A stretch of DNA of 63,639 bases, the filler included, from an uncultured Ignavibacteriales bacterium (GTDB taxonomy: Bacteria > Zixibacteria > MSB-5A5 > GN15 > JAAZOE01): NCBI GenBank assembly GCA_964611355.1. It is 5 parts of 5 records of this genome, joined end to end, with 100 filler letters (N's around TTAATTAATTAA, not from the genome) between each part and the next. Parts side by side here need not be neighbours in the genome. Positions count along the whole stretch, not along the records: positions 1 to 14,048 come from CAZSYD010000056.1; 4 more parts are not named here. One strand, given 5' to 3'. A program made the translations under genes and the position numbers. Below the pieces are notes generated by a model. That model was not told the DNA's origin, made no database searches, and saw nothing but the letters and a program-made list of their open reading frames with translations. Below are positions 1 through 14,048 of the stretch, piece after piece (position 1 is the first letter of the stretch; every line of letters starts with the position of its first letter).

Positions 1-53
1 GGGTGCCTTACCCATTTATAAGTAGGATGACACGCCCCTAAAACTCACGTCTT

Positions 54-1936
<1,883 letters not shown>

Positions 1937-2001
1937 TTCGCATTTTATTCCGGTTTGAGCCGGACTAAGCTAACGAAGTACAAAACTCCGGGCAAGTAAA
2001 T

Positions 2002-4428
2002 TCAGGCTTTTTTGGCCTTTGTCGCCGGTCTTTTCGGGCCGGCCGCGGGGCCTGATTTCCCGGCCTTTTTCGAGGCTTTGAACAGTTCCGGGCCAAAGAC
2101 GATTTTCAACGCCTCCTCGACTTTTTTGACCTTATGTAGTTTAAGCCCGTTGACCAACTCTTTGGGTAGTTCCGATATCTCCTTGGCGTTTTTCCGCGGT
2201 ACGATAATCTCCGTAATGCCGCTTCGTTTGGCCGCCAGGAGTTTTTCGTTGAGACCGCCAACCGGAAAAATCGAACCGGTCAGCGATATCTCGCCGGTCA
2301 TGGCGACCCTGGTCGAAATCCGCTGCTTTTTCAGCGCTGAAATCATCGCCGCCACCATGGTAATTCCCGCCGAAGGACCTTCCTTGGGAACCGCACCCTC
2401 GGGTACATGGATATGTATTTCCGTGTTGCTGATTTTCTTCAAATCGATCCCCAGCCGGTGGGCGTGCGACCGAATCCAGGTCAGCCCGGCCGTGGCCGAT
2501 TCCTGCATCACCTCGCCGATTTTTCCGGTGATCGTCAGCTTGTGCGACCCCGGAACCAGCGATACCTCGACCGGAAGGATTTCGCCGCCGACCTCCGTCC
2601 AGGCCAGCCCTACCGCATAACCGTAATCGGCAACCCGGGGCACCTCTGTGTACTGGTAAGTCGGCACTCCAAGGTATTTGGCGATATCTTTAGCGTCAAG
2701 CTTGTAAGACCTGTGCTTTTTGCGGTTAACTTCCCTGAGAGTAATCTTTCGATATATGGCAGTCAGCTTGCGCTCGAGCTCCCGGACGCCCGATTCCCGC
2801 GTATAATCGCGAATTATACGAACCAGCGCATTGTCGTTTATCTTAATGTTTAGATGCTTGATACCCAGTTCCTTCCGGATCTTCGGCATCAAAAACTTCC
2901 GGGCGATGTTTATCTTTTCGAACTCAAGATATCCCGGCAACCGGATAATCTCCATTCTATCCTGAAGCGGAATCGGAATATCATGCAGGGTATTGGCGGT
3001 AGTCAAAAAGAGCACCTCGGAAAGATTAAAGTCCAGTTCGAGGTAATTGTCGGAAAAATAGGCGTTCTGCTCGGGATCGAGGACCTCCAGCAGCGCCGAT
3101 GCGGGATCGCCCCGGAAATCGGAATCGATCTTGTCAACCTCGTCGAGTAAAAAAACCGGATTGGAAGACCCGGCCTTCTTGATCGACTGAATTATCCGGC
3201 CCGGTAGAGCGCCTATATACGTCCGGCGATGGCCGCGAATTTCGGCTTCATCATGAATGCCGCCCAGCGACATTCGGACGAATTTGCGATCCAGCGCCCG
3301 GGCGACCGACCGGCCCAGAGACGTCTTCCCGACTCCGGGAGGCCCCACCAGGCACAGGATAGGACCTTTCACTTTACCTGCCGTACGCAGCACGGCCAGA
3401 TGCTCCATCATCCTTTTCTTCGGTTTCCCCAGACCGTAATGGTCCTCGTCGAGGATTTTCTGGACTTCCTTGAAGTTGGTTCGATCTTTCGTTTTAATAT
3501 TCCATGGCAGCCCCAGAAGCCATTCGAGATAACCGCGCAAAACACCCGATTCGGCCGAATACGGATGCATCCGGGAAAGCTTTTTTATCTCCTCCTCACC
3601 CCGGGCGCGCACTTCCTCGGGGGGATCAGCCTCTTCAAGTTTGGCGTACAATTCATCGATCTCACCGGCGGTGTCGTCGTACTGGCTCAACTCATCTTTA
3701 ATCGCCTTTAACTGCTGTTGAAGATAATACTCCCGCTGACTGCGCGTCAGCGACTCCCGAACATTGCCGTCAATACGCTGTTCAATCTTCAGGATTTCAA
3801 TTTCGCTGGTCAAAAGGTCGGCCAGTGCGAGAAACTGATCCTTGAGGGTGGCGCTCTCCAGCACCGCCTGTTTCTGATCATTTTTCTGCAACAGGTGGGC
3901 AGAAATGGTATCGGCCAGGCGGCGGTTGTCGTTGATAGTCGCCAGTTGCGTAATTACCTCATTTGGTATCCGCCGGTTGTGATGAACATAATCGGAAAAA
4001 AGGTCCAGCACCCGCCGGGCCATCGCTTCGCTTTCGGCATCCCGGGTTTGTCTCTCCGGCTCGATTATTATTATTCGGGCCAACAGGTAACCGGATGATC
4101 TCACAAAAGCGCCAATCCGGCCACGAAGCAAACCTTCCACCAGCACCTTGAGGGTGCCGTTCGGAAGTTTCATAACCTGTATTACCCGGGCCACCACCCC
4201 GACCTCGTAAAGGTCTTTGGCAGTGGGCTTGTCGACGCCCGGCCGCTTCTGCGCCACCAGAAAGACAAGTTTATCCATAACCATCGCTTCCTGGAGAGCG
4301 TTAATCGACATCTGGCGGCCGATCAGCAACGGATATATCATGTACGGGAATATCACCGCGTCGCGCATCGGCAGAACCGGCAATCGGGATTTAACCTCAA
4401 TCATTTCATTATCGTGCAGGTACTTCAT
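2002..4428 (-). CDS. lon: ATP-dependent Lon protease
   Basis: LON N-domain (LPVLPMRD), Walker A GPPGVGKT, LLDEVDK, catalytic GPSAG and GGLNEK. Start placed at ATG 4428 (AAGGTG just upstream); the ORF is open to 4476. Confidence 0.97.
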   Translation of the reverse strand: MKYLHDNEMIEVKSRLPVLPMRDAVIFPYMIYPLLIGRQMSINALQEAMVMDKLVFLVAQKRPGVDKPTAKDLYEVGVVARVIQVMKLPNGTLKVLVEGLLRGRIGAFVRSSGYLLARIIIIEPERQTRDAESEAMARRVLDLFSDYVHHNRRIPNEVITQLATINDNRRLADTISAHLLQKNDQKQAVLESATLKDQFLALADLLTSEIEILKIEQRIDGNVRESLTRSQREYYLQQQLKAIKDELSQYDDTAGEIDELYAKLEEADPPEEVRARGEEEIKKLSRMHPYSAESGVLRGYLEWLLGLPWNIKTKDRTNFKEVQKILDEDHYGLGKPKKRMMEHLAVLRTAGKVKGPILCLVGPPGVGKTSLGRSVARALDRKFVRMSLGGIHDEAEIRGHRRTYIGALPGRIIQSIKKAGSSNPVFLLDEVDKIDSDFRGDPASALLEVLDPEQNAYFSDNYLELDFNLSEVLFLTTANTLHDIPIPLQDRMEIIRLPGYLEFEKINIARKFLMPKIRKELGIKHLNIKINDNALVRIIRDYTRESGVRELERKLTAIYRKITLREVNRKKHRSYKLDAKDIAKYLGVPTYQYTEVPRVADYGYAVGLAWTEVGGEILPVEVSLVPGSHKLTITGKIGEVMQESATAGLTWIRSHAHRLGIDLKKISNTEIHIHVPEGAVPKEGPSAGITMVAAMISALKKQRISTRVAMTGEISLTGSIFPVGGLNEKLLAAKRSGITEIIVPRKNAKEISELPKELVNGLKLHKVKKVEEALKIVFGPELFKASKKAGKSGPAAGPKRPATKAKKA

Positions 4429-4558
4429 CACCTTTTCCGTTTTTGATAACATTTCAATATGCAACAAAACCGCCAAAAATCAAGGCTGTTCCCCGAGTTA
4501 TTGCCTGTCAGGCCGTCGGAGGGGCGGCAGACAACCATACCCCGGATTCCAAAAACAG

Positions 4559-4586
4559 TTGACAATCGGAACTGTTGGGCTATATT
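4559..4586 (+). promoter_or_regulatory. Sigma70-type promoter of the tRNA-Lys pair
   Basis: TTGACA-16nt-TATATT, 25 nt before the first tRNA. Confidence 0.7.
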
Positions 4587-4611
4587 GCGTACCCTGAAAA
4601 ATAACCATCAT

Positions 4612-4683
4612 GGGGGTGTAGCTCAGGGGTAGAGCATCTGCCTTTTAAGCAGGTGGTCGAAGGTTCGATTCCTTCCACCCTCA
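4612..4683 (+). tRNA. tRNA-Lys (anticodon TTT), CCA not encoded
   Basis: Cloverleaf: GGGGGTG/CACCCTC acceptor, D arm GCTC/GAGC, anticodon loop CTTTTAA, T loop TTCGATT. Confidence 0.96.
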
Positions 4684-4691
4684 TAGAGAAT

Positions 4692-4764
<73 letters not shown>

Positions 4765-4837
4765 TTTTTTTTATTGGGGAAGACGATATCTTGTTTAATC
4801 AATGAACTATTTGAGGAAAGTCCATTCCATTTATCAG

Positions 4838-4866
4838 TTGACATAATTTGACCGAATGGCTATATT
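4838..4866 (+). promoter_or_regulatory. Sigma70-type promoter of the secreted-protein / TPR-bEBP operon
   Basis: TTGACA-17nt-TATATT. Confidence 0.75.
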
Positions 4867-4984
4867 TCTAATGTGAGGGGGTGGTTTTCGTTCAAACCCC
4901 TCATATCCCCTCCCACCCCCACTGCCTTGGCAAAAAGATTAGCGTATTAAAATACAGGTTCACACTCAAACAAGGAGTAGTACC

Positions 4985-5380
4985 ATGTGGCCCAAAACCT
5001 TTATAGCGATTCTGACGGCCTTATGTCTTGTTCTGGCCGTCGGATTTGCCGGCACGGTTAATGCCGGCGACTCGCCCTACCAGGTCGACCCGGCGGGTGA
5101 TGAACACCCATGGGGCGGCGAATATTTTAGCGGTGACGACGGCGGCACCCCGACCATTAGTGGCTCTGTTTCGCAGACGTGCGGTTCAATCCCCCAGATT
5201 GACGGCGCTCCCTACTACCTGGCGAGAACCTTTATTCTGCATTCCTGGTCGAAACTCACTCGCTATTTTGGAAATTACTTCAGCGCCTCGACAACAGATA
5301 AAAGGGCGGTACGTATTTCCCGGTCAACCACCAAAATGTCGGGTTCCGTCAAACCATACAGAGGAGCGAGGAATAGGTAA
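4985..5380 (+). CDS. Small secreted protein (131 aa), candidate signalling-peptide precursor
   Basis: AAGGAG RBS; Sec signal peptide ending VNA|GD; acidic segment with DEHPWGG; basic tail; stop 2 nt before the next ATG. Confidence 0.8.
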   Translation: MWPKTFIAILTALCLVLAVGFAGTVNAGDSPYQVDPAGDEHPWGGEYFSGDDGGTPTISGSVSQTCGSIPQIDGAPYYLARTFILHSWSKLTRYFGNYFSASTTDKRAVRISRSTTKMSGSVKPYRGARNR

Positions 5381-5382
5381 TC

Positions 5383-7641
5383 ATGATAAAGGAAAAGCCA
5401 AAGAAACCGGATATCCGTTCCGAACTGTTGCGACAATTGTCGCAGGCGGTTCTGCAAGGGGATGTCACCGGCGGTTTGCGGCTGGCCGAAAAGGCCGGAA
5501 AAACCATCGCCGACCGGGACGATCCGAGGACCGGACAGTTTCGGTGTCTTGAAGCCAGGCTGTTTTTCCTTTCCGGTGATTACCAGAAAACCCTCGCCTC
5601 CTCAAGACTGGCAGCTTCGCTTCTGGCCCCCTTCGGGGAAACCGAAGATCTGGCCCGAGCATATCTGCTATCAGGCAAGGCACTGGTGAGTCTGGGTAAT
5701 TATCGGGAAGCGGAAACGGCGCTTCTCGACGCCATTTCCCTGTTCAGACGTTGCGATAACGTAGCCGAGAGAATAGACGCGGCCAACCAACTGGCACGGG
5801 TCTATTTTACCCGCGCCGAATACAAAAGCGCCCTCAAGTATCTGCTGGACACCATAAAGCTGGCCGACCGGCAGGGCGACCGGCGTAAGCTGGCTTTTCT
5901 CTGGGGCAATCTGGGCCGCGTATATACTCTGCTTGGCAATCTCAAAAAGGCCGCAGAAGCGCTCCGGCTTAATCTCGAAATATCGGACGATCTGGGCGAC
6001 GAAAAAGAAAAGGCCAAGGCCCTGTTATCACTCGGTTATATCGGTCTTCAAAACGAACAATACGAAGAAGCCGAATCTCATTTTGACCAGGCCCGGCTGA
6101 TTATAATCGCCAACGGCATGCGGCGCGAGATGGTCATCCATCATACCTATCTGGGCGAACTTAAAATCAAGTGCGGTGACCACGCCTCCGCCCGCAGATT
6201 CCTGAACGAGGCAATCGACGGCGCTCGCTCGCTGGCCCCGGAATCCTCTCTTATGGCCGCCCCTCTGCGGCATCTGGCCGCCCTGGAACTTGCCGAAGGT
6301 AACGCTTCGGCTTCGTCGCGGCTGGCCAACAAGGTCCTGGCGCTGACCAAAAAGATCGGAGAACTCGTAGAAAAAGGCGCAGCGTTAAGGATTCTTGCTC
6401 AGGCTACTCTCGCCGAGGGGAAAAATGATGGCCGGTCGCCGGCCAAAGCGGCTGATCTCTTCGCCGAAGCGCTGGAGGTTTTCGACGAAATAGACGCTCG
6501 CTTTGAAAAAGCCGAAACCTTCGTCCAGATGGCCGTTTCCGGATTGGGTTCTTCCCATCGTATTCTGGTCAACCTTTTCCGAGCAGCCGATATTTACCAG
6601 AAACTGGGGATAAGCTCCAAGCATCAAAAAACCCAGGAACTTATCAATCAATTTGAAGCCCCGGCCGCCAATGTACCCCCGAAAGAATCGGTTTCCTCGA
6701 ACCAGGCCACGACAATAGTTACCGCCAACCGAAAAATGAAAAAGATAATGCGCGACATCGGTCACGCCGCAAAATCCGAAATGCCGGTTCTTCTCATAGG
6801 CGAAACCGGTACCGGTAAAGATCTCCTGGCGCGGCATTACCATGCCATGTCGGGCAGGCAGGGCCGGTTTGTGGCGGTCAACTGCGCCGCTTTCCCGGAT
6901 ACGCTTCTCGAATCGGAGCTGTTTGGGTATAGGCGAGGAGCCTTTACGGGCGCGGTAACCGATAAGGATGGTCTGTTGCAACGGGCTGACGGGGGAACAT
7001 TCTTTCTCGATGAAATCGGTGAGATGTCGCCGGCTTCACAAGCCAAGCTGTTGACCGTAATCGAAACCTGTCAATCCCGGCCACTCGGCGGCCTGAAGGA
7101 AGACAAACTCGACCTCAGGATTATCACGGCCACCAACTGCGACCTGGCCGGTATGGTTGAAGAGGGACGCTTCCGTCGCGATCTCTATTATCGTCTCAGC
7201 GGGATAACTTTCACGATACCGCCCCTGGCCGAACGCCCTGAAGATATACCTCTCCTTCTGCATCATTTCCTTTGCCGGCAGGGCGTAATCGGCGAAGACC
7301 AACAGGTCGATATGGCCATGATTGCGGAGTTTACCTCCCGGTCATGGCCCGGTAACGTGCGTCAGCTTGAATCGGAAGTAAAAAAGCTGGTGTTGTTTTC
7401 GACCATGGCCCGTGAGGATACTCTTGGCGATCTGGCCGGTTTATTGGTTCAGAACGATATTGATGGCCAAACGACATCGCTTTTTAGCCAGATAGAGGAG
7501 TTTGAGAGGACATTGATCCTCAAAGCGCTCCGCCGCGCCGACTGGAACAAATCGAAAGCCGCCCGTTCGCTGGCGATTCACGAATCAACTCTTCGGGCGA
7601 AAATGAAGCGGTACCATCTGGCCCCGGCGTCTGTTTCGTAA
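5383..7641 (+). CDS. TPR-repeat sigma54-dependent enhancer-binding protein (TPR array + AAA+ + Fis-type HTH)
   Basis: About 420 aa of TPR-like helical repeats, then GETGTGKD, intact GAFTGA, FLDEIGE, FRRDLYYRL, WPGNVRQL and a C-terminal HTH (NKSKAARSLAI). Confidence 0.93.
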   Translation: MIKEKPKKPDIRSELLRQLSQAVLQGDVTGGLRLAEKAGKTIADRDDPRTGQFRCLEARLFFLSGDYQKTLASSRLAASLLAPFGETEDLARAYLLSGKALVSLGNYREAETALLDAISLFRRCDNVAERIDAANQLARVYFTRAEYKSALKYLLDTIKLADRQGDRRKLAFLWGNLGRVYTLLGNLKKAAEALRLNLEISDDLGDEKEKAKALLSLGYIGLQNEQYEEAESHFDQARLIIIANGMRREMVIHHTYLGELKIKCGDHASARRFLNEAIDGARSLAPESSLMAAPLRHLAALELAEGNASASSRLANKVLALTKKIGELVEKGAALRILAQATLAEGKNDGRSPAKAADLFAEALEVFDEIDARFEKAETFVQMAVSGLGSSHRILVNLFRAADIYQKLGISSKHQKTQELINQFEAPAANVPPKESVSSNQATTIVTANRKMKKIMRDIGHAAKSEMPVLLIGETGTGKDLLARHYHAMSGRQGRFVAVNCAAFPDTLLESELFGYRRGAFTGAVTDKDGLLQRADGGTFFLDEIGEMSPASQAKLLTVIETCQSRPLGGLKEDKLDLRIITATNCDLAGMVEEGRFRRDLYYRLSGITFTIPPLAERPEDIPLLLHHFLCRQGVIGEDQQVDMAMIAEFTSRSWPGNVRQLESEVKKLVLFSTMAREDTLGDLAGLLVQNDIDGQTTSLFSQIEEFERTLILKALRRADWNKSKAARSLAIHESTLRAKMKRYHLAPASVS

Positions 7642-7673
7642 GCTTGTACGAAGCCGCACCGTTTTTCGTCATT

Positions 7674-7708
7674 TGCCATAAGCGCGTGCGTTGCACGTGC
7701 TTATGGCA
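7674..7708. repeat. 16-bp-arm inverted repeat (enhancer site or operon terminator)
   Basis: TGCCATAAGCGCGTGC-GTT-GCACGTGCTTATGGCA, one G:T mismatch, followed by TTTT. Confidence 0.7.
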
Positions 7709-7830
7709 TTTTCGATAGTCAGCAATTCGCAAAACTATACGAATTCAGCATCCCTTTCAATTGTATAATATATTGTAATCGACTGCTATATCGAGAGATA
7801 CGGAGAATACAAACATAAAGAAACAGGCCA

Positions 7831-7847
7831 AGGCATACCGCTTGCTA
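7831..7847 (+). promoter_or_regulatory. Sigma54 (-24/-12) promoter
   Basis: AGGCATACCGCTTGCTA = GG-N10-GC, matching TGGCAC-N5-TTGCW; AT-rich IHF-like segment at 7766-7778; directly downstream of a GAFTGA activator gene. Confidence 0.75.
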
Positions 7848-7856
7848 AAAAATATA

Positions 7857-7948
7857 ACGTCATTTTTAGCTCCTTTTTGCGCTACTTTGTGGTCCTTTTT
7901 TCTCGGAGAAGCTGCCTGCGTCAGAGGGGTACGCAGGCAGCCTTTTTT
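7857..7948 (+). ncRNA. Putative sigma54-dependent small RNA (~92 nt) with anti-Shine-Dalgarno motifs
   Basis: Lies between the sigma54 promoter and a strong intrinsic terminator; contains no ATG or RBS; CU-rich 5' part with CATTTTTAGCTCCTTT and GGTCCTTT. Confidence 0.6.
7911..7948 (+). terminator. Intrinsic terminator
   Basis: GCTGCCTGCGT / ACGCAGGCAGC 11-bp stem, then CTTTTTT. Confidence 0.88.
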
Positions 7949-8028
7949 ATGCGAATATATTGCAGGCAGAAATGGGTGAAATCAAATAGATATTGCCCTG
8001 CGATTCGATAGGGATTATATATAGCGGC

Positions 8029-8559
8029 ATGAATAACTACCATGAAAACGAGCGGAAGGAACTGACCCGGCTATCGAAAGAGAAGCTTATCGGCATGCTT
8101 GAGGATGCCGCCAAAAACTGGCTGGCCCATGATGGTCTCTGGTTTTTGGCCGTAGAAGCTGACCATGGCATGGAAACCGCCATAAAGCACGATCGCACGG
8201 CTTGGGAACGGTTTACCGTTATCGAAGCCAAACGGATCATGAAACGGCACGGCATCAGGCCGGGTTGCGGATTGGAAGGCCTGAAAAAAGCTCTCAACTA
8301 TCGTCTGTACGCCCATCTCAACGTACAGGAGATTGTCGAAGAAAACGAAAACAGTTTCGTATTCCGCATCAACGATTGCCGGGTGCAGTCAGCCCGCAAA
8401 CGCGACAACCGCCCCGATTTTCCCTGCAAACCGGTCGGCCTGGTCGAATATTCAAAATTCGCCGAAACAATCGATCCGCGGATAAAAACCGAATGTATTT
8501 GCTGCCCTCCCGACGACCATCCGGACACTTATTATTGCGCTTGGAAATTCAGCCTGTAA
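8029..8559 (+). CDS. DUF6125-like protein (Cys-containing, V4R/ATC-hydrolase-like)
   Basis: WLAHDGLWF, CRVQ..R, FPCK, IDPRI...C..CPPD..P....CAW pattern; ATG 8029 preferred over TTG 7993. Confidence 0.75.
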   Translation: MNNYHENERKELTRLSKEKLIGMLEDAAKNWLAHDGLWFLAVEADHGMETAIKHDRTAWERFTVIEAKRIMKRHGIRPGCGLEGLKKALNYRLYAHLNVQEIVEENENSFVFRINDCRVQSARKRDNRPDFPCKPVGLVEYSKFAETIDPRIKTECICCPPDDHPDTYYCAWKFSL

Positions 8560-8564
8560 TAAAT

Positions 8565-8597
8565 CAGACGGCCGGTTTGCGCACGGCCGTCTGCTTT
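8565..8597 (+). terminator. Probable terminator hairpin
   Basis: CAGACGGCCG / CGGCCGTCTG 10-bp stem just after the stop codon. Confidence 0.6.
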
Positions 8598-8931
8598 AGC
8601 AGGGGCAATTAAGGCAAGGAGGTTACTATCCGCCGCGTTTTTCTGGGGAAATTACCCGGCGAATCAACAGCGGTTGGATACTGTTCAATAGACTCCTGAA
8701 AAGTACCGGCAACCACTTTATATATCTTAAACAAAATCCGAAACACAACTGTTCCGAATTCAACCGATTTTTATATGGAAAACGACCGGTTTACCCTCCG
8801 ATTTTGACATTGTCATAAGCCCAAAAACAGATATATTGATAATTGCTGCCGGAAAAATCGGCGAAACACGAGGCTAAGGCGGGACGAAGGCTTCTTTGGC
8901 GTGATAACCCTTAAAACGACAGGATGACCAC

Positions 8932-10110
8932 TTGGATAAAGTCAGAATTCAACAGATTCAGGGCGAGTTGGCTCGATTGGGTATCGATGGCTGGTTACTT
9001 TATGATTTTCACGGGCACAATGACATCGCCGTTCGTTTCTTAGACCTGCACGGGATTATCACCCGGCGGTCGTTTTACCTGATTCCGGATAGCGGCACAC
9101 CCACCGCTTTCGTTCATGCAATCGAGAAAAAACCGTTCGATTCGCTGCCGGGGAACAAGTTTTATTACTCCTCCTACAGAATTCTTGAGGAGGAATTGGG
9201 ACGAACCGTCGGTAGTATGAAACGCCTGGCCATGGAGTACTCCCCCAAAGGCAGGCTGCCGTACATCGGCAAAGTTGACGCCGGAACGCTGGAGTTGATA
9301 CGGTCTTTCGGGGTGGAAATCGTATCTTCCGCCGACCTGGTGGCCAAATTCGACGCCTGTCTGACTCCGGAGCAGATTGAAACTCACCGCGAAGCGGCCC
9401 GCCTCCTGCACCAGATAAAAGATAATGCGTTTCAATTCATTAAGGACAAGCTGGAATCAGGCGATACGGTAACCGAATTCGATGTGGTTCAGTACATTCT
9501 TGATCGATTTAATCAGGCCGGCATGGTGACCGACCATGCTCCGATCTGTGCCGTCGGCACCAACGGCGGCAATCCTCACTACACGCCTGTTGATCCCGGT
9601 TCGGCCGAAATCACGCGCGACAACCTGGTGCTGATTGATCTCTGGGCCAAGATGCAAACGCCAAAAGCGGTTTACGCCGATATCACGTGGATGGCCTACA
9701 CCGGCAGTTCCCTGCCGGATCGATACGCCCAGAATTTTGAATTGCTGTGCATGGCTCGCGACGCCGCCGTAAAATTCATTCGGGAAAACTGGGGCAAAAG
9801 GAACATCTACGGGTACGAGGTTGACGACGTCTGCCGAAATGTCATCTCTCACGTTGACCTCGGTAATTATTTCACTCATCGAACCGGTCATTCAATCACC
9901 GAATTGAGCCATGGTTCCGGGCCGAATATCGACAATCTTGAAACCGAAGACCGCCGGAAACTTATTCCCGGGCACCTTTTCTCAATTGAACCGGGATTAT
10001 ATTTTGATGATTTCGGTATGCGAACGGAAATCGACGTATTAATCACGCAGGACGGCCCGGAGATTACCACCCGGCCGGTACAGCAAAAGGTAATCCTCTT
10101 TTTCGAGTAA
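8932..10110 (+). CDS. M24 family Xaa-Pro aminopeptidase/dipeptidase
   Basis: NPHY, IDLW...YADIT, HRTGHSI, FSIEPGLY, GMRTE metal-ligand motifs. Confidence 0.9.
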   Translation: MDKVRIQQIQGELARLGIDGWLLYDFHGHNDIAVRFLDLHGIITRRSFYLIPDSGTPTAFVHAIEKKPFDSLPGNKFYYSSYRILEEELGRTVGSMKRLAMEYSPKGRLPYIGKVDAGTLELIRSFGVEIVSSADLVAKFDACLTPEQIETHREAARLLHQIKDNAFQFIKDKLESGDTVTEFDVVQYILDRFNQAGMVTDHAPICAVGTNGGNPHYTPVDPGSAEITRDNLVLIDLWAKMQTPKAVYADITWMAYTGSSLPDRYAQNFELLCMARDAAVKFIRENWGKRNIYGYEVDDVCRNVISHVDLGNYFTHRTGHSITELSHGSGPNIDNLETEDRRKLIPGHLFSIEPGLYFDDFGMRTEIDVLITQDGPEITTRPVQQKVILFFE

Positions 10111-10124
10111 CGTCAGGCGATTGA

Positions 10125-10685
10125 GTGGTCATGTACGTAACCTACCGGCAAATACGGGAAGCCGCCGACAGGTACGGTTACCCGCCGATCATTCATATGA
10201 CTGCGCCGGTTGATTCGGAAGAATTCGAATTTATTCGTTCCACCCAGCATTACGGCCGCTCGCATGATATCACCATGTTCATTTTCAAAGGCCGGCGGAT
10301 CATTGTCATCGCCAAGCATAATTATCCGGAAGGGCTTTATCGCCCGCCGTCGGGAGCGATCAAGCCGGGCGAGTCGCTTGTCGCCGGGGCGTTGCGCGAG
10401 GCGTACGAGGAAACCGGCTGCCGGATCGAACTGACCCGTTATATCTTACAGGTAAATGCGAACTTTACCGACGGCCATGGCCATATCCCCTGGAAATCGC
10501 ACGTATTTGCCGCGCGGTATCTTTCGGGTGAACCGAAACCGATAGATACGCATGAGATTCGCGACGTCGCCCTGGCGACGCTGGATGATTTTGTAAAGTA
10601 CAAGGAAATAATCCGCAATAAAACCACCTCCGGAGGCCTTAACTACCGAACCCACCTGCATGATGAAGTATTGAAACTGCTGTGA
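10125..10685 (+). CDS. NUDIX hydrolase
   Basis: Nudix box GAIKPGESLVAGALREAYEETG. Confidence 0.88.
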   Translation: MVMYVTYRQIREAADRYGYPPIIHMTAPVDSEEFEFIRSTQHYGRSHDITMFIFKGRRIIVIAKHNYPEGLYRPPSGAIKPGESLVAGALREAYEETGCRIELTRYILQVNANFTDGHGHIPWKSHVFAARYLSGEPKPIDTHEIRDVALATLDDFVKYKEIIRNKTTSGGLNYRTHLHDEVLKLL

Positions 10686-11070
10686 ACGAACCGGCATCAA
10701 TACCGTCCCTGGCGGCGTTTTTATTTTTCCCGCCAAAAATCGCTTAATATGTGGAACGGGCTTTCTTTTTCTCTATGACCATCTCCGGTCTTATCTCATC
10801 CGAGGGGGGAATTACGAAACGCGCGTTGGTCACGTATGACAGTATAACCCAACGCATATATCAAGCCTTTTTCGATACTGTTTTGTGAGACATCGCTACC
10901 ACGCTTATTATGAGATATGTCGTAACCGGCTCGAAACTCCAATGACGTCCGATCCAAAACAGCTTTTGGGTTACTTCCATATCCTTCAACGATATCATTG
11001 AAAGATTCTTTTCACTGGGGCAAATAACCTGCAGATCAAGAAATAGTCAATAAGATGAAAAAACCGCACA

Positions 11071-12537
11071 TCACGACTCCGATAAGCGTGATTGACCATC
11101 CGACATCACGCCTGCGGCGGGCCGGAAAAGACTGAATATCGGATTGACCGCCAATGATACCATCATGCCGATTGTCCCCGCCTGGGGGGACGGCATTCCT
11201 TCGATATATAATATCAGGCAGACGGCAAGGCCGAGTACGGATGAAGAGATTGCTCCGAATTTGTTCGCTCTCCTGCTGAACAAGCCCCAGATGAATGGAC
11301 CCAGAAATACCGAACCGATTGCTCCCCAGGAAATACCCAGCACGGCGACAATCGTGGCCGGTTTGAAATAGGCCATGATGACGGACAGGCATATAAAAAA
11401 GCCGCTCGATAATCTCATGAGCAACGTTAACCTCCTGTCGGAGACGTTCCTGTTTACGAATCCGGCGTACAGGTCCTTGGCGATCGACGAACTGGAGACC
11501 AGCACCAGCGCCGCAAGGGTTGACATGGAAGCCGACAGTATCAGAAGCAGCATTATAACCGACAGGGTTTCCGGAATCACGTTGGCCAGCAGTTCCGGCA
11601 TCAAGGCGTCAAAAACAGGTTTTCCGTTACTAAAAGCGTTGGGAGCGCTTTCAGGGGACAGGAAAAACCTGGTGGCCGCCCCGGTAAAGTAGGCGATGCC
11701 GCCGACCAGAACCGCGAAAGCGGTTGAAGCAACCATCCCGATTTTAATAGACCGTCTATCCTTAATCGCATAAAACTTCTGAACCAACTGCGGCATGGCA
11801 AAGGGCGCAACACTGGTGAGAAAAACTAGGCAAAAAAGAGGCCATGCTCCCGGCGGCCCGATCAACCCGGTCAGTTTGGGATTGATGGATGACAATTTTG
11901 CCGTCATGGCGGCAAAGCCGTCGGCTTTATCCATGACGCTCCACAGAAGAAGAAGAACTCCAACGCTCATTATCATTCCGAACACAACGTCGATCATCGT
12001 CATTGATTTATATCCGCCCAAAACAAGGTATATAGCGGTGAAGCCTCCCATAAAAACCAGGGCCAGGGTATAGTCGATATTGAAATTCGACCCGAATAAA
12101 TAGGACAAACCCATGAAAACGGCGGCAGAATACGGTACGAAGAACACGAAAATCGACACGGCGGCGAAAAATTTCAGGAACTTGCTGTCGTATCGTTTTT
12201 CAAAATATTCGGCCATGGTGTGGACATCGTATTCAACCGACATCCGCTTGATCCTGGGACCCAAAAGCCACCAGACGCCCAGAACACCGACAAGCGCATT
12301 TCCCGCGGCGATCCATAAACCGGAATACCCAAAGCCCCAGCCGACCTTTCCGGCAAAACCGATAAACAGCACTGCCGAAAAATAGGCGGTTCCGTAAGTG
12401 AAGGCCGTCATCCAGGGGCCGATGCTCCGACCGCCGAGAAAGAAATCCGAAAAGGAACGGGTCTTTCTCATGCCCATTATGCCGATGACGACTATCATCA
12501 GGGCAAACGCCGAAATAACAAGCATCTTTACCGGCAT
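11071..12537 (-). CDS. Sodium:solute symporter (PutP/PanF-like)
   Basis: DFFLGGRSIGPW, ASMST motif, about 13 hydrophobic segments, GGAGGAG RBS. Confidence 0.9.
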   Translation of the reverse strand: MPVKMLVISAFALMIVVIGIMGMRKTRSFSDFFLGGRSIGPWMTAFTYGTAYFSAVLFIGFAGKVGWGFGYSGLWIAAGNALVGVLGVWWLLGPRIKRMSVEYDVHTMAEYFEKRYDSKFLKFFAAVSIFVFFVPYSAAVFMGLSYLFGSNFNIDYTLALVFMGGFTAIYLVLGGYKSMTMIDVVFGMIMSVGVLLLLWSVMDKADGFAAMTAKLSSINPKLTGLIGPPGAWPLFCLVFLTSVAPFAMPQLVQKFYAIKDRRSIKIGMVASTAFAVLVGGIAYFTGAATRFFLSPESAPNAFSNGKPVFDALMPELLANVIPETLSVIMLLLILSASMSTLAALVLVSSSSIAKDLYAGFVNRNVSDRRLTLLMRLSSGFFICLSVIMAYFKPATIVAVLGISWGAIGSVFLGPFIWGLFSRRANKFGAISSSVLGLAVCLILYIEGMPSPQAGTIGMMVSLAVNPIFSLFRPAAGVMSDGQSRLSES

Positions 12538-12785
12538 TTTATTCTCCTCCCCGCCAGGAACTATAATTTCTCAAGATACGGTCACTCCATTTTATATATG
12601 GCATATTTGTGGAGTACACTAACCGTCCCGAAGGCTAAACGCAAGCGTTAAAAGATGCAATTCGAGGAAAAACGCTTGTCAGCGCCAAACGTATTTGATA
12701 TTTTGCGCGCTGATTAAAACCTTCCGGCGGTACGTGAATTATGCGACTGCAAGCGGGATTATACGGGGCGAAAGTATAAGGTGAA

Positions 12786-14048
12786 TTGAAAATGAGAACG
12801 TTGTTGTTGATCGTTTTCGCGTCGGTGTTCTTTAACGCGGCAACGCTGAGGGCGGAGCCGCAAAAAGGCAATATTCATCCAAAGGTCAGGATAGGCTTTT
12901 CGGAACGTTTCAGAATGGTAATCTGGGATAACGCCGTCGGTCTCGCCGATTCGGCCGCCGCCGGTAATGCTTTTACGCGGCATCGCACCGGTATTGCCGG
13001 GCAGTGGTTTCCCAACGGCCGGTTTGAATGCGCTCTGAAACTTACCAACGAATTCCGTTACTATTTTGTCCCCGAAAACCGGGAATTCAGCTTTGGCGAA
13101 ATCATTATCGACCAGTTGTATATTAAATGGAACAATTCGGCCGTCCTGCCCGGAACCCTGACTCTCGGCCGCCAGAATATTATCCTCGGCGAGGGTTTTA
13201 TCGTTATGGATGGCCATCCCCTCGACGGCTCCCGATCCGTTTACTTTAATGCTGCTCGTTTTGATTGGAAATTAAGCCAAAAAGATAAATTGATTCTGTT
13301 CTATGCCTATCAACCCGAGACCGATAACATACTGCCGGTTATTCATGATTGCGACGCGCCGTTGATTGAGCAACCGGAAGAAGGCATGGGCGCATACTTT
13401 ACGGGGAAGCTCAAGCGGACAAATCTTGATATTTATTTCATTCGCAAGAACATCAAAGACACCGATACTCGTCCAACCGAATCAAGCATCAATACTTTCG
13501 GCGCCCGAATCGTGCATCCGGCAGCGGAATATCTGACGGCCACCGCCGAAGGCGCTTATCAGTTTGGAAAATACGGCGACGCTGACAGGTCTGCGTTCGG
13601 CGGCTATTTTTATTTGACGTATAGAACCGATTGGACTTCATATCTCCCGAAGTCTTTCACCGCCGGAGCCGTTTGCCTTAGCGGAGACAATCCTTCCACG
13701 ACCCACCGGGAAGCCTGGGAACCGATATTTGGCCGCTGGCCAAAATGGAGCGAGTCTTATATCTACACCCTGGTACGGGAAAACGGCGTCGCCTATTGGA
13801 CCAACCTCATTTCTCTGTATGGAAAAGCCCGGTTTGTAATTTCGCCGGAGTTGAAGTTTGGCTTCGATTATCATCATCTTATGGCGTCCCGGGAACCCGT
13901 CGCCGACCGACCCTTTCCGGGCGGCAACGGAAAAACCCGCGGCAATCTATTCATCGGAAAATTGAGTTTCCAAATCAACAGCCGTATGACCGGATACCTG
14001 CTGTGGGAAAAATTTGAACCCGGCAGTTACTATTTCAATAATGCCGAC
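12786..14048 (+). CDS. Alginate-export (AlgE-like) outer-membrane beta-barrel, truncated by contig end
   Basis: Signal peptide; DQLY, LTLGRQ..ILGEG, DGSRS, SGD motifs; aromatic alternating strands. Confidence 0.75.

Follow-up and report, generated by a model that had tools for sequence, protein, structure and literature searches.

What does a transcriptional activator read when its sensor is a superhelix of tetratricopeptide repeats (TPR) encoded directly behind a small exported protein, and what does it control when a conserved small RNA (sRNA) gene follows it? This question is raised by a locus at positions 4838-7948 of the window, that is, of the whole 63,639-nucleotide (nt) stretch of DNA analysed here, from an uncultured Ignavibacteriales bacterium placed by GTDB in the Zixibacteria (GCA_964611355.1). 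The locus consists of a two-gene operon for a 131-amino-acid (aa) protein and a 752-aa sigma-54 activator (P0002), followed by a short unit without an open reading frame (ORF). A first-pass annotation of the DNA had proposed a new cell-cell signalling module, in which a peptide input of the RRNPP type would be joined to an sRNA output of the LuxO/Qrr type.

The locus lies on a single contig (C56, positions 1-14048 of the window) of a 2.57-Mb genome of 110 contigs, 96% complete, referred to as G000, with its contigs numbered C. Comparison within the order covered 151 genomes in total, from the bacterium's own family (f1) and from three others (f2, f3 and f4). Thirteen loci of the own family formed the alignment set for promoter, enhancers and sRNA, and gene pairs were counted on 30 fetched loci from two families. 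The elements of the locus are as follows.

4838..4866, plus strand: sigma70-type promoter of the two-gene operon, TTGACA-17-TATATT, from a consensus scan (11 of 12 positions), aligning in 13/13 family loci
4873..4984, plus strand: 5' leader of about 112 nt, read from the sequence and with an approximate start, carrying a GAGGGGG...CCCCTC hairpin and a C-rich tract; general form kept across the 13-locus alignment
4985..5380, plus strand: gene of the 131-aa exported protein, from translation; signal peptide at residues 1-27 (read by eye), then DEHPWGGE (nt 5099-5122) with the invariant P42-W43-G44, a Gly/Asp-rich linker, a helix at about residues 76-101 and a polar tail
5383..7641, plus strand: gene of the 752-aa sigma-54 activator, from Pfam domains; TPR sensor at residues 1-430, AAA+ domain at 445-609, Fis-type helix-turn-helix (HTH) at 704-744
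7635..7652, no strand assigned: candidate enhancer site 1, TTCGTAAGCTTGTACGAA, spanning the activator stop codon; in 13/13 family loci, 190-207 nt before the -24 GG
7674..7712, plus strand: terminator-like hairpin of the activator gene, 16 pairs and TTTT, from a terminator scan
7726..7743, no strand assigned: candidate enhancer site 2, TTCGCAAAACTATACGAA; strict pattern in 9/13 family loci, 102-118 nt before the -24 GG
7832..7846, plus strand: sigma-54 promoter GGCATACCGCTTGCT (-24 GG, -12 GC); in 13/13 family loci, and in 14/16 f3 loci at the same offset
7857..7948, plus strand: ORF-less sRNA gene of about 92-96 nt, from alignment, consensus fold and covariance model; 5' seed GUCAUUUUUAGCUCCUU (7859-7875), small hairpin, single-stranded GUCCUUUUUUCUCGG, terminator hairpin and U run

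The answer that we put forward is a circuit of four steps which, taken as a whole and with the place of contact left open, we hold at somewhat below an even chance. The sigma70 promoter would transcribe a translationally coupled pair, a mostly disordered Sec-type exported protein and a cytoplasmic activator whose N-terminal TPR superhelix would stand in place of the receiver or ligand domain of other sigma-54 activators. The groove of this superhelix is predicted to bind the acidic DEHPWGGE segment of the partner, and this binding would set AAA+ activity. The active activator would then bind two TTCGTA-N6-TACGAA sites flanking its own terminator and open the promoter at 7832-7846, yielding one sRNA of about 95 nt. 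The 5' end of that sRNA would pair across the Shine-Dalgarno sequence, spacer and AUG of a zf-HC2 anti-sigma gene (G000:C69:6006-6024), lowering the anti-sigma factor relative to its sigma factor, of the extracytoplasmic function (ECF) class, and so raising ECF sigma activity; here the pairing is read from sequence and covariation, and its direction is what we infer.

The first step is largely read from the gene order. The sigma70 promoter and the two abutting frames are where the first-pass annotation had placed them, translation giving 4985-5380 and 5383-7641, with a gap of 2 nt. The same arrangement is found in homologues, as that annotation had suggested looking for: in 28 of the 30 loci, the stop of the small ORF lies 1-5 nt ahead of the activator start or the two frames overlap, the other two loci being masked (L029) or cut by a contig end (L033). 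A signal-peptide ORF with [DE][DE][HQ]PWGG[DE] is present in 27 of the 30, and L012 carries the variant DVDPWGGD. The small exported protein is, on this genomic evidence, an obligate neighbour of the activator, an orthologue of which was present in 60 of the 61 related genomes searched.

The 131-aa protein itself matches no Pfam or NCBIfam family, and a protein atlas search gave no usable match. A profile search found 199 relatives; the 120 that were listed measure 104 to 136 aa. Their listed source names read Zixibacteria or "FCB group", and one relative is named "exported hypothetical protein". Signal-peptide features (a basic residue, a hydrophobic helix and a small-x-small site) were recognised by eye in 28 sequences, and here comprise the basic residue K4, a hydrophobic stretch and a cleavage-type site, VNA/G. 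The AlphaFold2 model (predicted local distance difference test, pLDDT, 62) is mostly disordered, with a signal helix at residues 2-25, the motif in a disordered stretch, one helix at residues 76-101 and a disordered tail. In the alignment of the small proteins, only M1, P42, W43 and G44 are invariant, and the C-terminal R-G-N / A-R-N-R ending probably reflects the Shine-Dalgarno sequence of the activator gene.

Immediately ahead of the operon promoter, at 4559-4765, stands a tandem pair of tRNA-Lys genes, with anticodons UUU and CUU and a sigma70-like promoter of their own at 4559-4586. The C-rich tract of the leader at 4873-4984 reads CCCCTCCCACCCCCA, and the invariant loop of the sRNA terminator is GAGGGG; pairing between the leader and that terminator loop, as a feedback on the operon, is conceivable.

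The second step concerns the activator and what it may sense. Pfam and translation agree on a TPR array, an intact GAFTGA-bearing AAA+ domain and an HTH in one 752-aa protein, just as first annotated. TPR_12 and TPR_MalT cover residues 52-364 (TPR_MalT with E 4.2e-13), TPR_8, TPR_1 and TPR_2 also match, Sigma54_activat (PF00158) covers residues 445-609 with E 2.4e-61, GAFTGA is read in the translation, and HTH_8 covers residues 704-744. None of the NCBIfam equivalogs was reached at its cut-off. An AAA+ domain with GAFTGA, an HTH, rpoN in the genome (G000:C3:88170-88646) and a promoter with upstream sites are the attributes of a sigma-54 enhancer-binding protein.

The model of the TPR sensor (pLDDT 90) comprises about ten helical repeats. 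Among the best 50 Foldseek matches, LGN/Pins came first (E 4e-11), MalT domain III ranked 31 and no RRNPP receptor appeared. When the matches were re-ranked by VIA, a peptide-bound phage Rap came first (Z 31.5, root-mean-square deviation 5.0, 350 aligned), followed by RapJ and RapF, with LGN at Z 29.8, NprR at 28.9 and 27.6, MalT domain III (1hz4) at 28.3 and AimR at 22.5. Rank 50 still stood at Z 21, so that fold alone gives no proof of homology, and identity between the sensor and the Rap/NprR-type matches is 10-14%.

Co-folding of the TPR domain with the mature precursor, a check already put forward in the first-pass annotation, placed DEHPWGGE in the groove. The sensor (with a 27-row alignment) and the mature partner (residues 28-131, 28 rows) scored 0.72, the median of three runs (0.78, 0.72 and 0.72), a mark attained by 116 of 157 solved complexes and by 2 of 215 mismatched pairs. 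When either of two unrelated partners was used, or when an unrelated protein took the place of the sensor, the control scores were 0.00-0.01, the best being 0.01. The runs share at least 44% of their contacts, the partner being modelled at pLDDT 41. The interface involves partner residues 36-46, which form the DEHPWGGE segment, together with 48 and 94; W43 lies against N176, R179 and residue 139, and the groove residues include the invariant N135, G175, N176, R179, A213, S216, Y219 and T255. Ten of the 33 invariant sensor residues fall among the 38 interface residues (2.8 expected, p about 1e-4), an enrichment that is not independent, since model and conservation count drew on the same alignments. 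The modelling supports binding of the motif in the TPR groove, and we lean slightly towards such binding being real.

A paralogous class of TPR activators, about 35% identical to the 752-aa protein, has the same gene layout, with an upstream signal-peptide ORF bearing an acidic-Trp motif in 13 of 16 loci (e.g. GDESGWVD, DDPWGG, GDPWDE). The member in this genome lies on the minus strand (G000:C49, match 475-2364; 727-737 aa depending on the start codon), and its upstream motif is YEGDESGWVD. Among the paralogue loci, those of relatives being L181-L195, a strong sigma-54-like promoter stands 139-160 nt after the activator in 5 of 16; a sixth, weaker match stands 261 nt after it, and some of these promoters lead into protein genes. 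More distantly, a 984-aa open frame (G000:C11:55346-58117) matches both the TPR part and the AAA+ part of the activator, and TPR-region relatives of 974-1000 aa combine TPR and sigma-54 domains, most of them also with GAF. A search for related loci in a collection of genome contigs returned mostly AAA+-only relatives. Since the TPR activator relatives, like those of the small protein, bear only Zixibacteria or "FCB group" as source names, we count the bacterium among the Zixibacteria.

As to where partner and sensor would meet, our tentative lean is to a cytoplasmic contact before export, the sensor reporting the export or retention of a sentinel partner; we state it as a possibility rather than an expectation, and contact after re-import of a cleaved peptide, somewhat more doubtful, is a close second. 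Contact before export fits because of the translational coupling, the envelope-type output and the order-wide invariance of the motif, and because no extra parts are needed. Regulators coupled to export are known, among them FlgM/sigma-28, the TPR chaperones IpgC-MxiE and SicA-InvF, and the Sec monitors SecM, VemP and MifM. In these, the cytoplasmic amount of a secreted substrate sets expression, and in the type III secretion cases a TPR protein holds the substrate. By contrast with the present proposal, they rely on type III secretion or on ribosome arrest, not on a Sec substrate read by a sigma-54 activator.

The rival that survives best, possible in our view but improbable, is a pheromone circuit like those of the RRNPP family, in which the partner would be exported and cut outside, and a peptide containing DEHPWGGE would be re-imported to bind the TPR sensor, with the sRNA and the ECF sigma factor tracking cell density. 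Much of the anatomy is in line with it: as in Rap-Phr, NprR-NprX, PlcR-PapR and AimR-AimP, the gene of a small Sec-type exported protein stands beside that of a TPR receptor which is cytoplasmic (here by prediction), the sensor model aligns with the whole of Rap and with NprR, its best matches being peptide-bound, and the ligand is predicted in the groove against Asn/Arg. The Gly/Asp-rich linker after the motif is potentially cleavable, paralogous pairs with differing motifs occur within the same genomes, and a weak SBP_bac_5-like protein was found in 11 of 14 family genomes. According to PMC10075063, the RRNPP signature asks for a propeptide of 10-100 aa (21-50 aa in validated cases) and a receptor of 250-500 aa. 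The locus agrees with three of its five points, namely a TPR receptor, gene adjacency and, judging by signal-peptide features recognised by eye, a probably exported small protein next door. It departs from the other two: the partner has 131 aa, the listed relatives being of similar length, and the receptor has 752 aa, the TPR sensor alone about 430 aa. The RRNPP-type input of the first-pass annotation is borne out in part.

Other features also set the pair apart from that family. Only generic TPR Pfam families match here, at the low identity given above; the output is an AAA+ sigma-54 motor; and the partner gene is upstream and translationally coupled. Within the mature protein, the motif is placed close to the N-terminus, and it is invariant across the order rather than diversified, P-W-G being shared by families whose sensors are only 31-37% identical, which is unlike a private code. 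A propeptide would have no use for the conserved helix and tail past the motif. In what is probably a diderm cell, a peptide of at least 10 residues would have to cross two membranes; in this genome no protein passes the SBP_bac_5 (Opp-type binding protein) cut-off, the best scoring 26.5 bits against 32.4. The RRNPP systems are, moreover, described from Firmicutes and their mobile elements. Given the failing lengths, the lack of a clear Opp-type protein in this genome and the invariance of the motif, cell-cell signalling becomes one of at least two live readings of the locus.

A second rival, to which we give rather little weight, supposes no direct contact: the small protein would have a periplasmic or envelope job of its own and be merely co-expressed, and the TPR domain would sense another ligand or protein, like MalT domain III and the sensors of STAND proteins. 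MalT, a STAND NTPase whose HTH is of the LuxR type, binds maltotriose, and it resembles the activator in having a TPR-like superhelix as the sensor arm of an ATPase transcription activator; it differs in that the protein studied here belongs to the sigma-54 AAA+ activators and its predicted ligand is a peptide. The TPR_MalT match and the MalT domain III alignment are no more distant than the other fold matches, repeat proteins commonly give high Z scores, passing co-folds can stem from likeness to solved TPR-peptide complexes, and partner and sensor belong to different compartments. Against this, the two genes stay together in 28 of 30 loci, as they do in 13 of 16 paralogue loci, and are translationally coupled; the predicted interface takes in the sole residues that are invariant in the mature partner, and on the sensor side it is enriched in invariant residues; and the co-fold controls scored next to nothing.

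The third step is the firmest part of the scheme. We infer it from the conserved anatomy of the locus, and on that basis it is very likely that the activator drives the sRNA. A motif GGCAY-N5-TTGCT occurs 185-207 nt past the activator stop in all 13 family loci, so that the -24/-12 promoter of the first-pass annotation is retained. The enhancer motif, TTCGTA-N6-TACGA(A/G) across the family loci, comes with a second copy about 90 bp beyond the first, and it also stands ahead of the promoter in 15 of 16 f3 loci. The whole genome contains only five such palindromes, two of them at this locus, and, among its 31 strict sigma-54 sites, the promoter at 7832-7846 is the only one with the enhancer motif within 300 nt. 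As no other strict site has that motif, the sRNA gene is probably the activator's only direct target.

Two further elements had been annotated between the activator gene and this promoter, a palindrome at 7674-7708 and an AT-rich tract like a binding site for integration host factor (IHF). The palindrome is present, with 16 pairs, and was considered as an enhancer; it is followed by TTTT and its two arms change together in L019 and L020, and we read it as the terminator of the activator gene. The pair of TTCGTA-N6-TACGAA sites flanking this hairpin are the likelier enhancer sites. The IHF-like tract was discarded: it matches 7 of 9 positions of the consensus WATCAANNNNTTR, which 64% of shuffles equalled, and only 2 of 13 family loci beat shuffles.

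The unit that follows has the properties of a free-standing RNA gene. As annotated, it is ORF-less and terminated, and the homologue comparison suggested earlier found its promoter and terminator at the same place in 13/13 family loci. The consensus fold has compensatory changes in 9 of 16 pairs, the terminator is a G+C-rich hairpin of 11-12 bp with a U run and the invariant loop GAGGGG, and one-base indels in the alignment argue against coding. A covariance model (R1), which matches this locus at 7853-7948 with E 3.5e-22, recovers the sRNA in 100 of the 151 genomes of the order, mostly once per genome: 13/13 in f1, 5/5 in f2, 80/99 in f3 and 1/33 in f4. In genomes with activator coordinates, the match lies 255-518 nt past the activator match on the same strand in 4 of 5 (f2) and 18 of 21 (f3); in the fifth f2 genome, activator and sRNA fall on separate small contigs, and the three f3 exceptions have no R1 match. 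In Rfam searches, only the two tRNAs reached the gathering score, and at E up to 1 positions 7600-8050 matched only snR161 (E 0.59), as by chance.

The fourth step, which goes beyond the first-pass annotation, is the pairing of this RNA with an mRNA. Its 5' end, GUCAUUUUUAGCUCCUU, is the reverse complement of a Shine-Dalgarno sequence, spacer and AUGAC, and apart from the sRNA gene the sole perfect 17-nt complement in the genome is G000:C69:6006 (site 6006-6024). This is the start site of a gene for a 183-aa zf-HC2 anti-sigma factor, after a SigW/RpoE-like ECF sigma gene whose product passes only a superfamily model. Targets were ranked with a duplex scan of 29 nt of the sRNA over 8,867 candidate start sites of this genome, together with a seed search; the anti-sigma site came first at -35.9 kcal/mol (mean -12.7, standard deviation 3.3), the runner-up being at -27.2 kcal/mol. 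Co-folding of the whole sRNA with the site gave a gain of -29.5 kcal/mol, and a scan with a 54-nt part of the sRNA returned only long, uninformative duplexes.

The complementarity extends to relatives. The sigma orthologue is present in 13/13 family genomes, and in 8 of 14 the cognate duplex is at -23 kcal/mol or below. Cognate pairs average -21.8 kcal/mol versus -18.0 for non-cognate ones, and the cognate mean was reached in none of 100,000 permutations, the genomes being related and hence not independent. Compensatory changes, which extend across genera, are seen in three lineages: in G008 and G013 (site GGAACC with sRNA GGUGCC), in G005 (GGACGC with ACGUCC) and in G006 (GGAAC with AGUUCC). 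In f3, the seed is GUCAUUUUUACUCCC, and 15-18 nt of complementarity span the sigma stop codon and the anti-sigma AUG in 5/5 genomes tested, with G-U wobbles and one paired A>G / U>C change. The 14-mer GGAGTAAAAATGAC has 53 occurrences in 35 of 151 genomes, as against 2 for its reversed control, and among 20 fetched copies outside the sRNA gene, 16 lie at a junction of sigma stop and anti-sigma start and 4 at other genes. We consider it likely, judging by this complementarity, that the sRNA targets the anti-sigma start site. Pairing should raise free sigma by blocking the anti-sigma start while the sigma factor is still made. A promoter, a terminator, a covarying structure, lack of coding and a conserved seed with its target are together what a trans-acting base-pairing sRNA would be expected to display.

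Two other sites of complementarity were noted. The start region of a 454-aa protein, AAGGAGCTAAACGATGAC (G000:C59:9884-11248), ranks fourth at -25.8 kcal/mol, and in L206 and L210, two genomes of one genus, an orthologous signal-peptide protein (MTF...) carries the exact 14-mer. The sRNA segment GUCCUUUUUUCUCGG (7892-7906) has its best strict complement at G000:C10:1649, with 2 mismatches and no clear start site; its pairing with the 3' end of the anti-sigma gene was rejected, the complement being found in 1 of 14 genomes and treated as chance.

A third rival, which we judge less probable than the two above, locates the sRNA's main job elsewhere, in another set of mRNAs or in sponging a protein through U-rich or GAGGGG elements, the anti-sigma match being secondary or lineage-specific. 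The weak duplexes of 6 of 14 family genomes, the invariant second segment and loop that lack an explanation, the four 14-mer copies at other genes, including the orthologous exported protein, and the site at C59:9884 all speak for it. Set against these are the first rank of the anti-sigma site among 8,867, the complementarity kept in two families with paired changes and G-U wobbles, and the 16 of 20 copies at sigma/anti-sigma junctions. The weakest rival, that the unit of about 95 nt is a leader with an attenuator for the downstream DUF6125 gene (8029-8559) and no free-standing sRNA, has in its favour a same-strand ORF 45-105 nt past the terminator in 10/13 family loci, and is made very improbable by the variable identity of that gene (DUF6125 in 2/13 family loci, BMC-domain proteins in 8 of 14 f3 ORFs scanned, elsewhere PGI, a short-chain dehydrogenase, DUF4416 or a Panacea-domain protein), by the conservation of the unit and its strong terminator, and by the match of its 5' end to a distant mRNA. 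The gene at 8029-8559 matches DUF6125 with E 3.9e-81, and at this place nine other family loci carry ORFs of 170-192 aa that match no Pfam family, eight on the same strand as the sRNA and one on the other.

Several observations weigh against the four-step circuit itself. On the input side, the partner looks exported and the sensor cytoplasmic, and the passing co-fold may reflect likeness to TPR-peptide complexes that are well represented among solved structures. The lean to contact before export is further opposed by the Rap/NprR-like fold of the sensor, and paralogous pairs with differing motifs in one genome look more like private ligand-receptor pairs. On the output side, the anti-sigma duplexes of 6 of the 14 family genomes are weak (-12 to -17 kcal/mol); GUCCUUUUUUCUCGG, the most conserved segment of the sRNA and invariant in 13/13 family genomes, has no explained partner, nor does the invariant loop; and a search for the Hfq Pfam family came up empty in this genome, which is 96% complete. 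An sRNA acting at the operon junction could, besides, lower both sigma and anti-sigma. Finally, f4 keeps the pair of exported protein and activator, yet it gave an R1 match in a single genome, no sigma-54 promoter was seen past the activator in the 17 f4 loci examined, and the short elements of 5 f4 genomes had no convincing complementarity to the sigma/anti-sigma junction. These elements, terminator-ended and with CCUUGG-type motifs, stand after the activator stop in loci L024-L040.

The layout of the output has known counterparts. In luxO-qrr1 of Vibrio, as in ntrC-nrsZ, an sRNA gene lies just after a sigma-54 activator gene. According to PMC5568312, pxr follows nla19 in Myxococcus after a 262-nt spacer, with a sigma-54 promoter; crcZ, after cbrB in Pseudomonas, needs sigma-N and is activated directly by CbrB, and its RNA sequesters Hfq/Crc, as stated in PMC8871633. 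The present locus is like nla19-pxr, cbrB-crcZ and luxO-qrr1 in having the sRNA gene 200-300 nt after the activator, on the same strand, with its own enhancers, a -24/-12 promoter and a terminator. It differs in that those activators are response regulators fed by kinases, the sensor here being a TPR domain with no receiver domain; there is no Rfam match here to those RNAs, and CrcZ is a sequestering RNA, versus a 5' antisense seed here. The LuxO/Qrr comparison of the first-pass annotation was therefore kept in part: the layout of activator, enhancers, sigma-54 promoter and adjacent terminated sRNA is conserved, but orthology to LuxO is not supported (NF041946 at 205 versus 800 bits, no Response_reg), nor is membership of the Qrr family, whose sRNAs depend on Hfq, given the Rfam result and the Hfq family not being found.

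The target has a precedent as well. In Campylobacter jejuni, the RpoN-dependent sRNA CJnc230 (FlmE) represses the mRNA of the anti-sigma factor FlgM and raises genes dependent on the partner sigma, according to the abstract of PMC11187230. That RNA arises by processing of the flgE mRNA and works for the flagellar pair sigma-28/FlgM, unlike the independent gene and the zf-HC2 anti-sigma of an ECF sigma proposed here. An activator gene followed by its own sRNA (pxr, crcZ, qrr1, nrsZ) and an sRNA directed against an anti-sigma factor are accordingly already known. Our literature searches, judged by titles or the start of abstracts, gave nothing about sigma-54 activators fused to a TPR domain, and likewise no work that connects Zixibacteria to sigma-54.

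Sigma-54 activators take their input from receiver, GAF, PAS, V4R and similar domains, and a TPR sensor with a segment of a co-encoded exported protein as its ligand would, if true, be a new type of input for them. In its boldest form, which we regard as a tentative and rather unlikely proposal, a Rap/NprR-like TPR sensor on a sigma-54 motor would read the DEHPWGGE segment of its exported partner, as a re-imported pheromone or as a sentinel of Sec export, and act via one sRNA on the anti-sigma partner of an envelope-type ECF sigma factor; it would then be the first signalling pair of peptide-type ligand and receptor outside Firmicutes, with the paralogous pairs as private channels. The circuit can be read end to end from the sequence, from sensor through enhancer, promoter and sRNA to target, with natural compensatory mutations, and it would tie together sigma-54, an sRNA and an ECF sigma/anti-sigma pair as three levels of regulation. 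A partner read before export would mean a new way of monitoring secretion; a re-imported one would amount to peptide signalling in a diderm. The locus offers regulatory biology that can be put to the test in a phylum which is represented here by metagenome-assembled genomes only.

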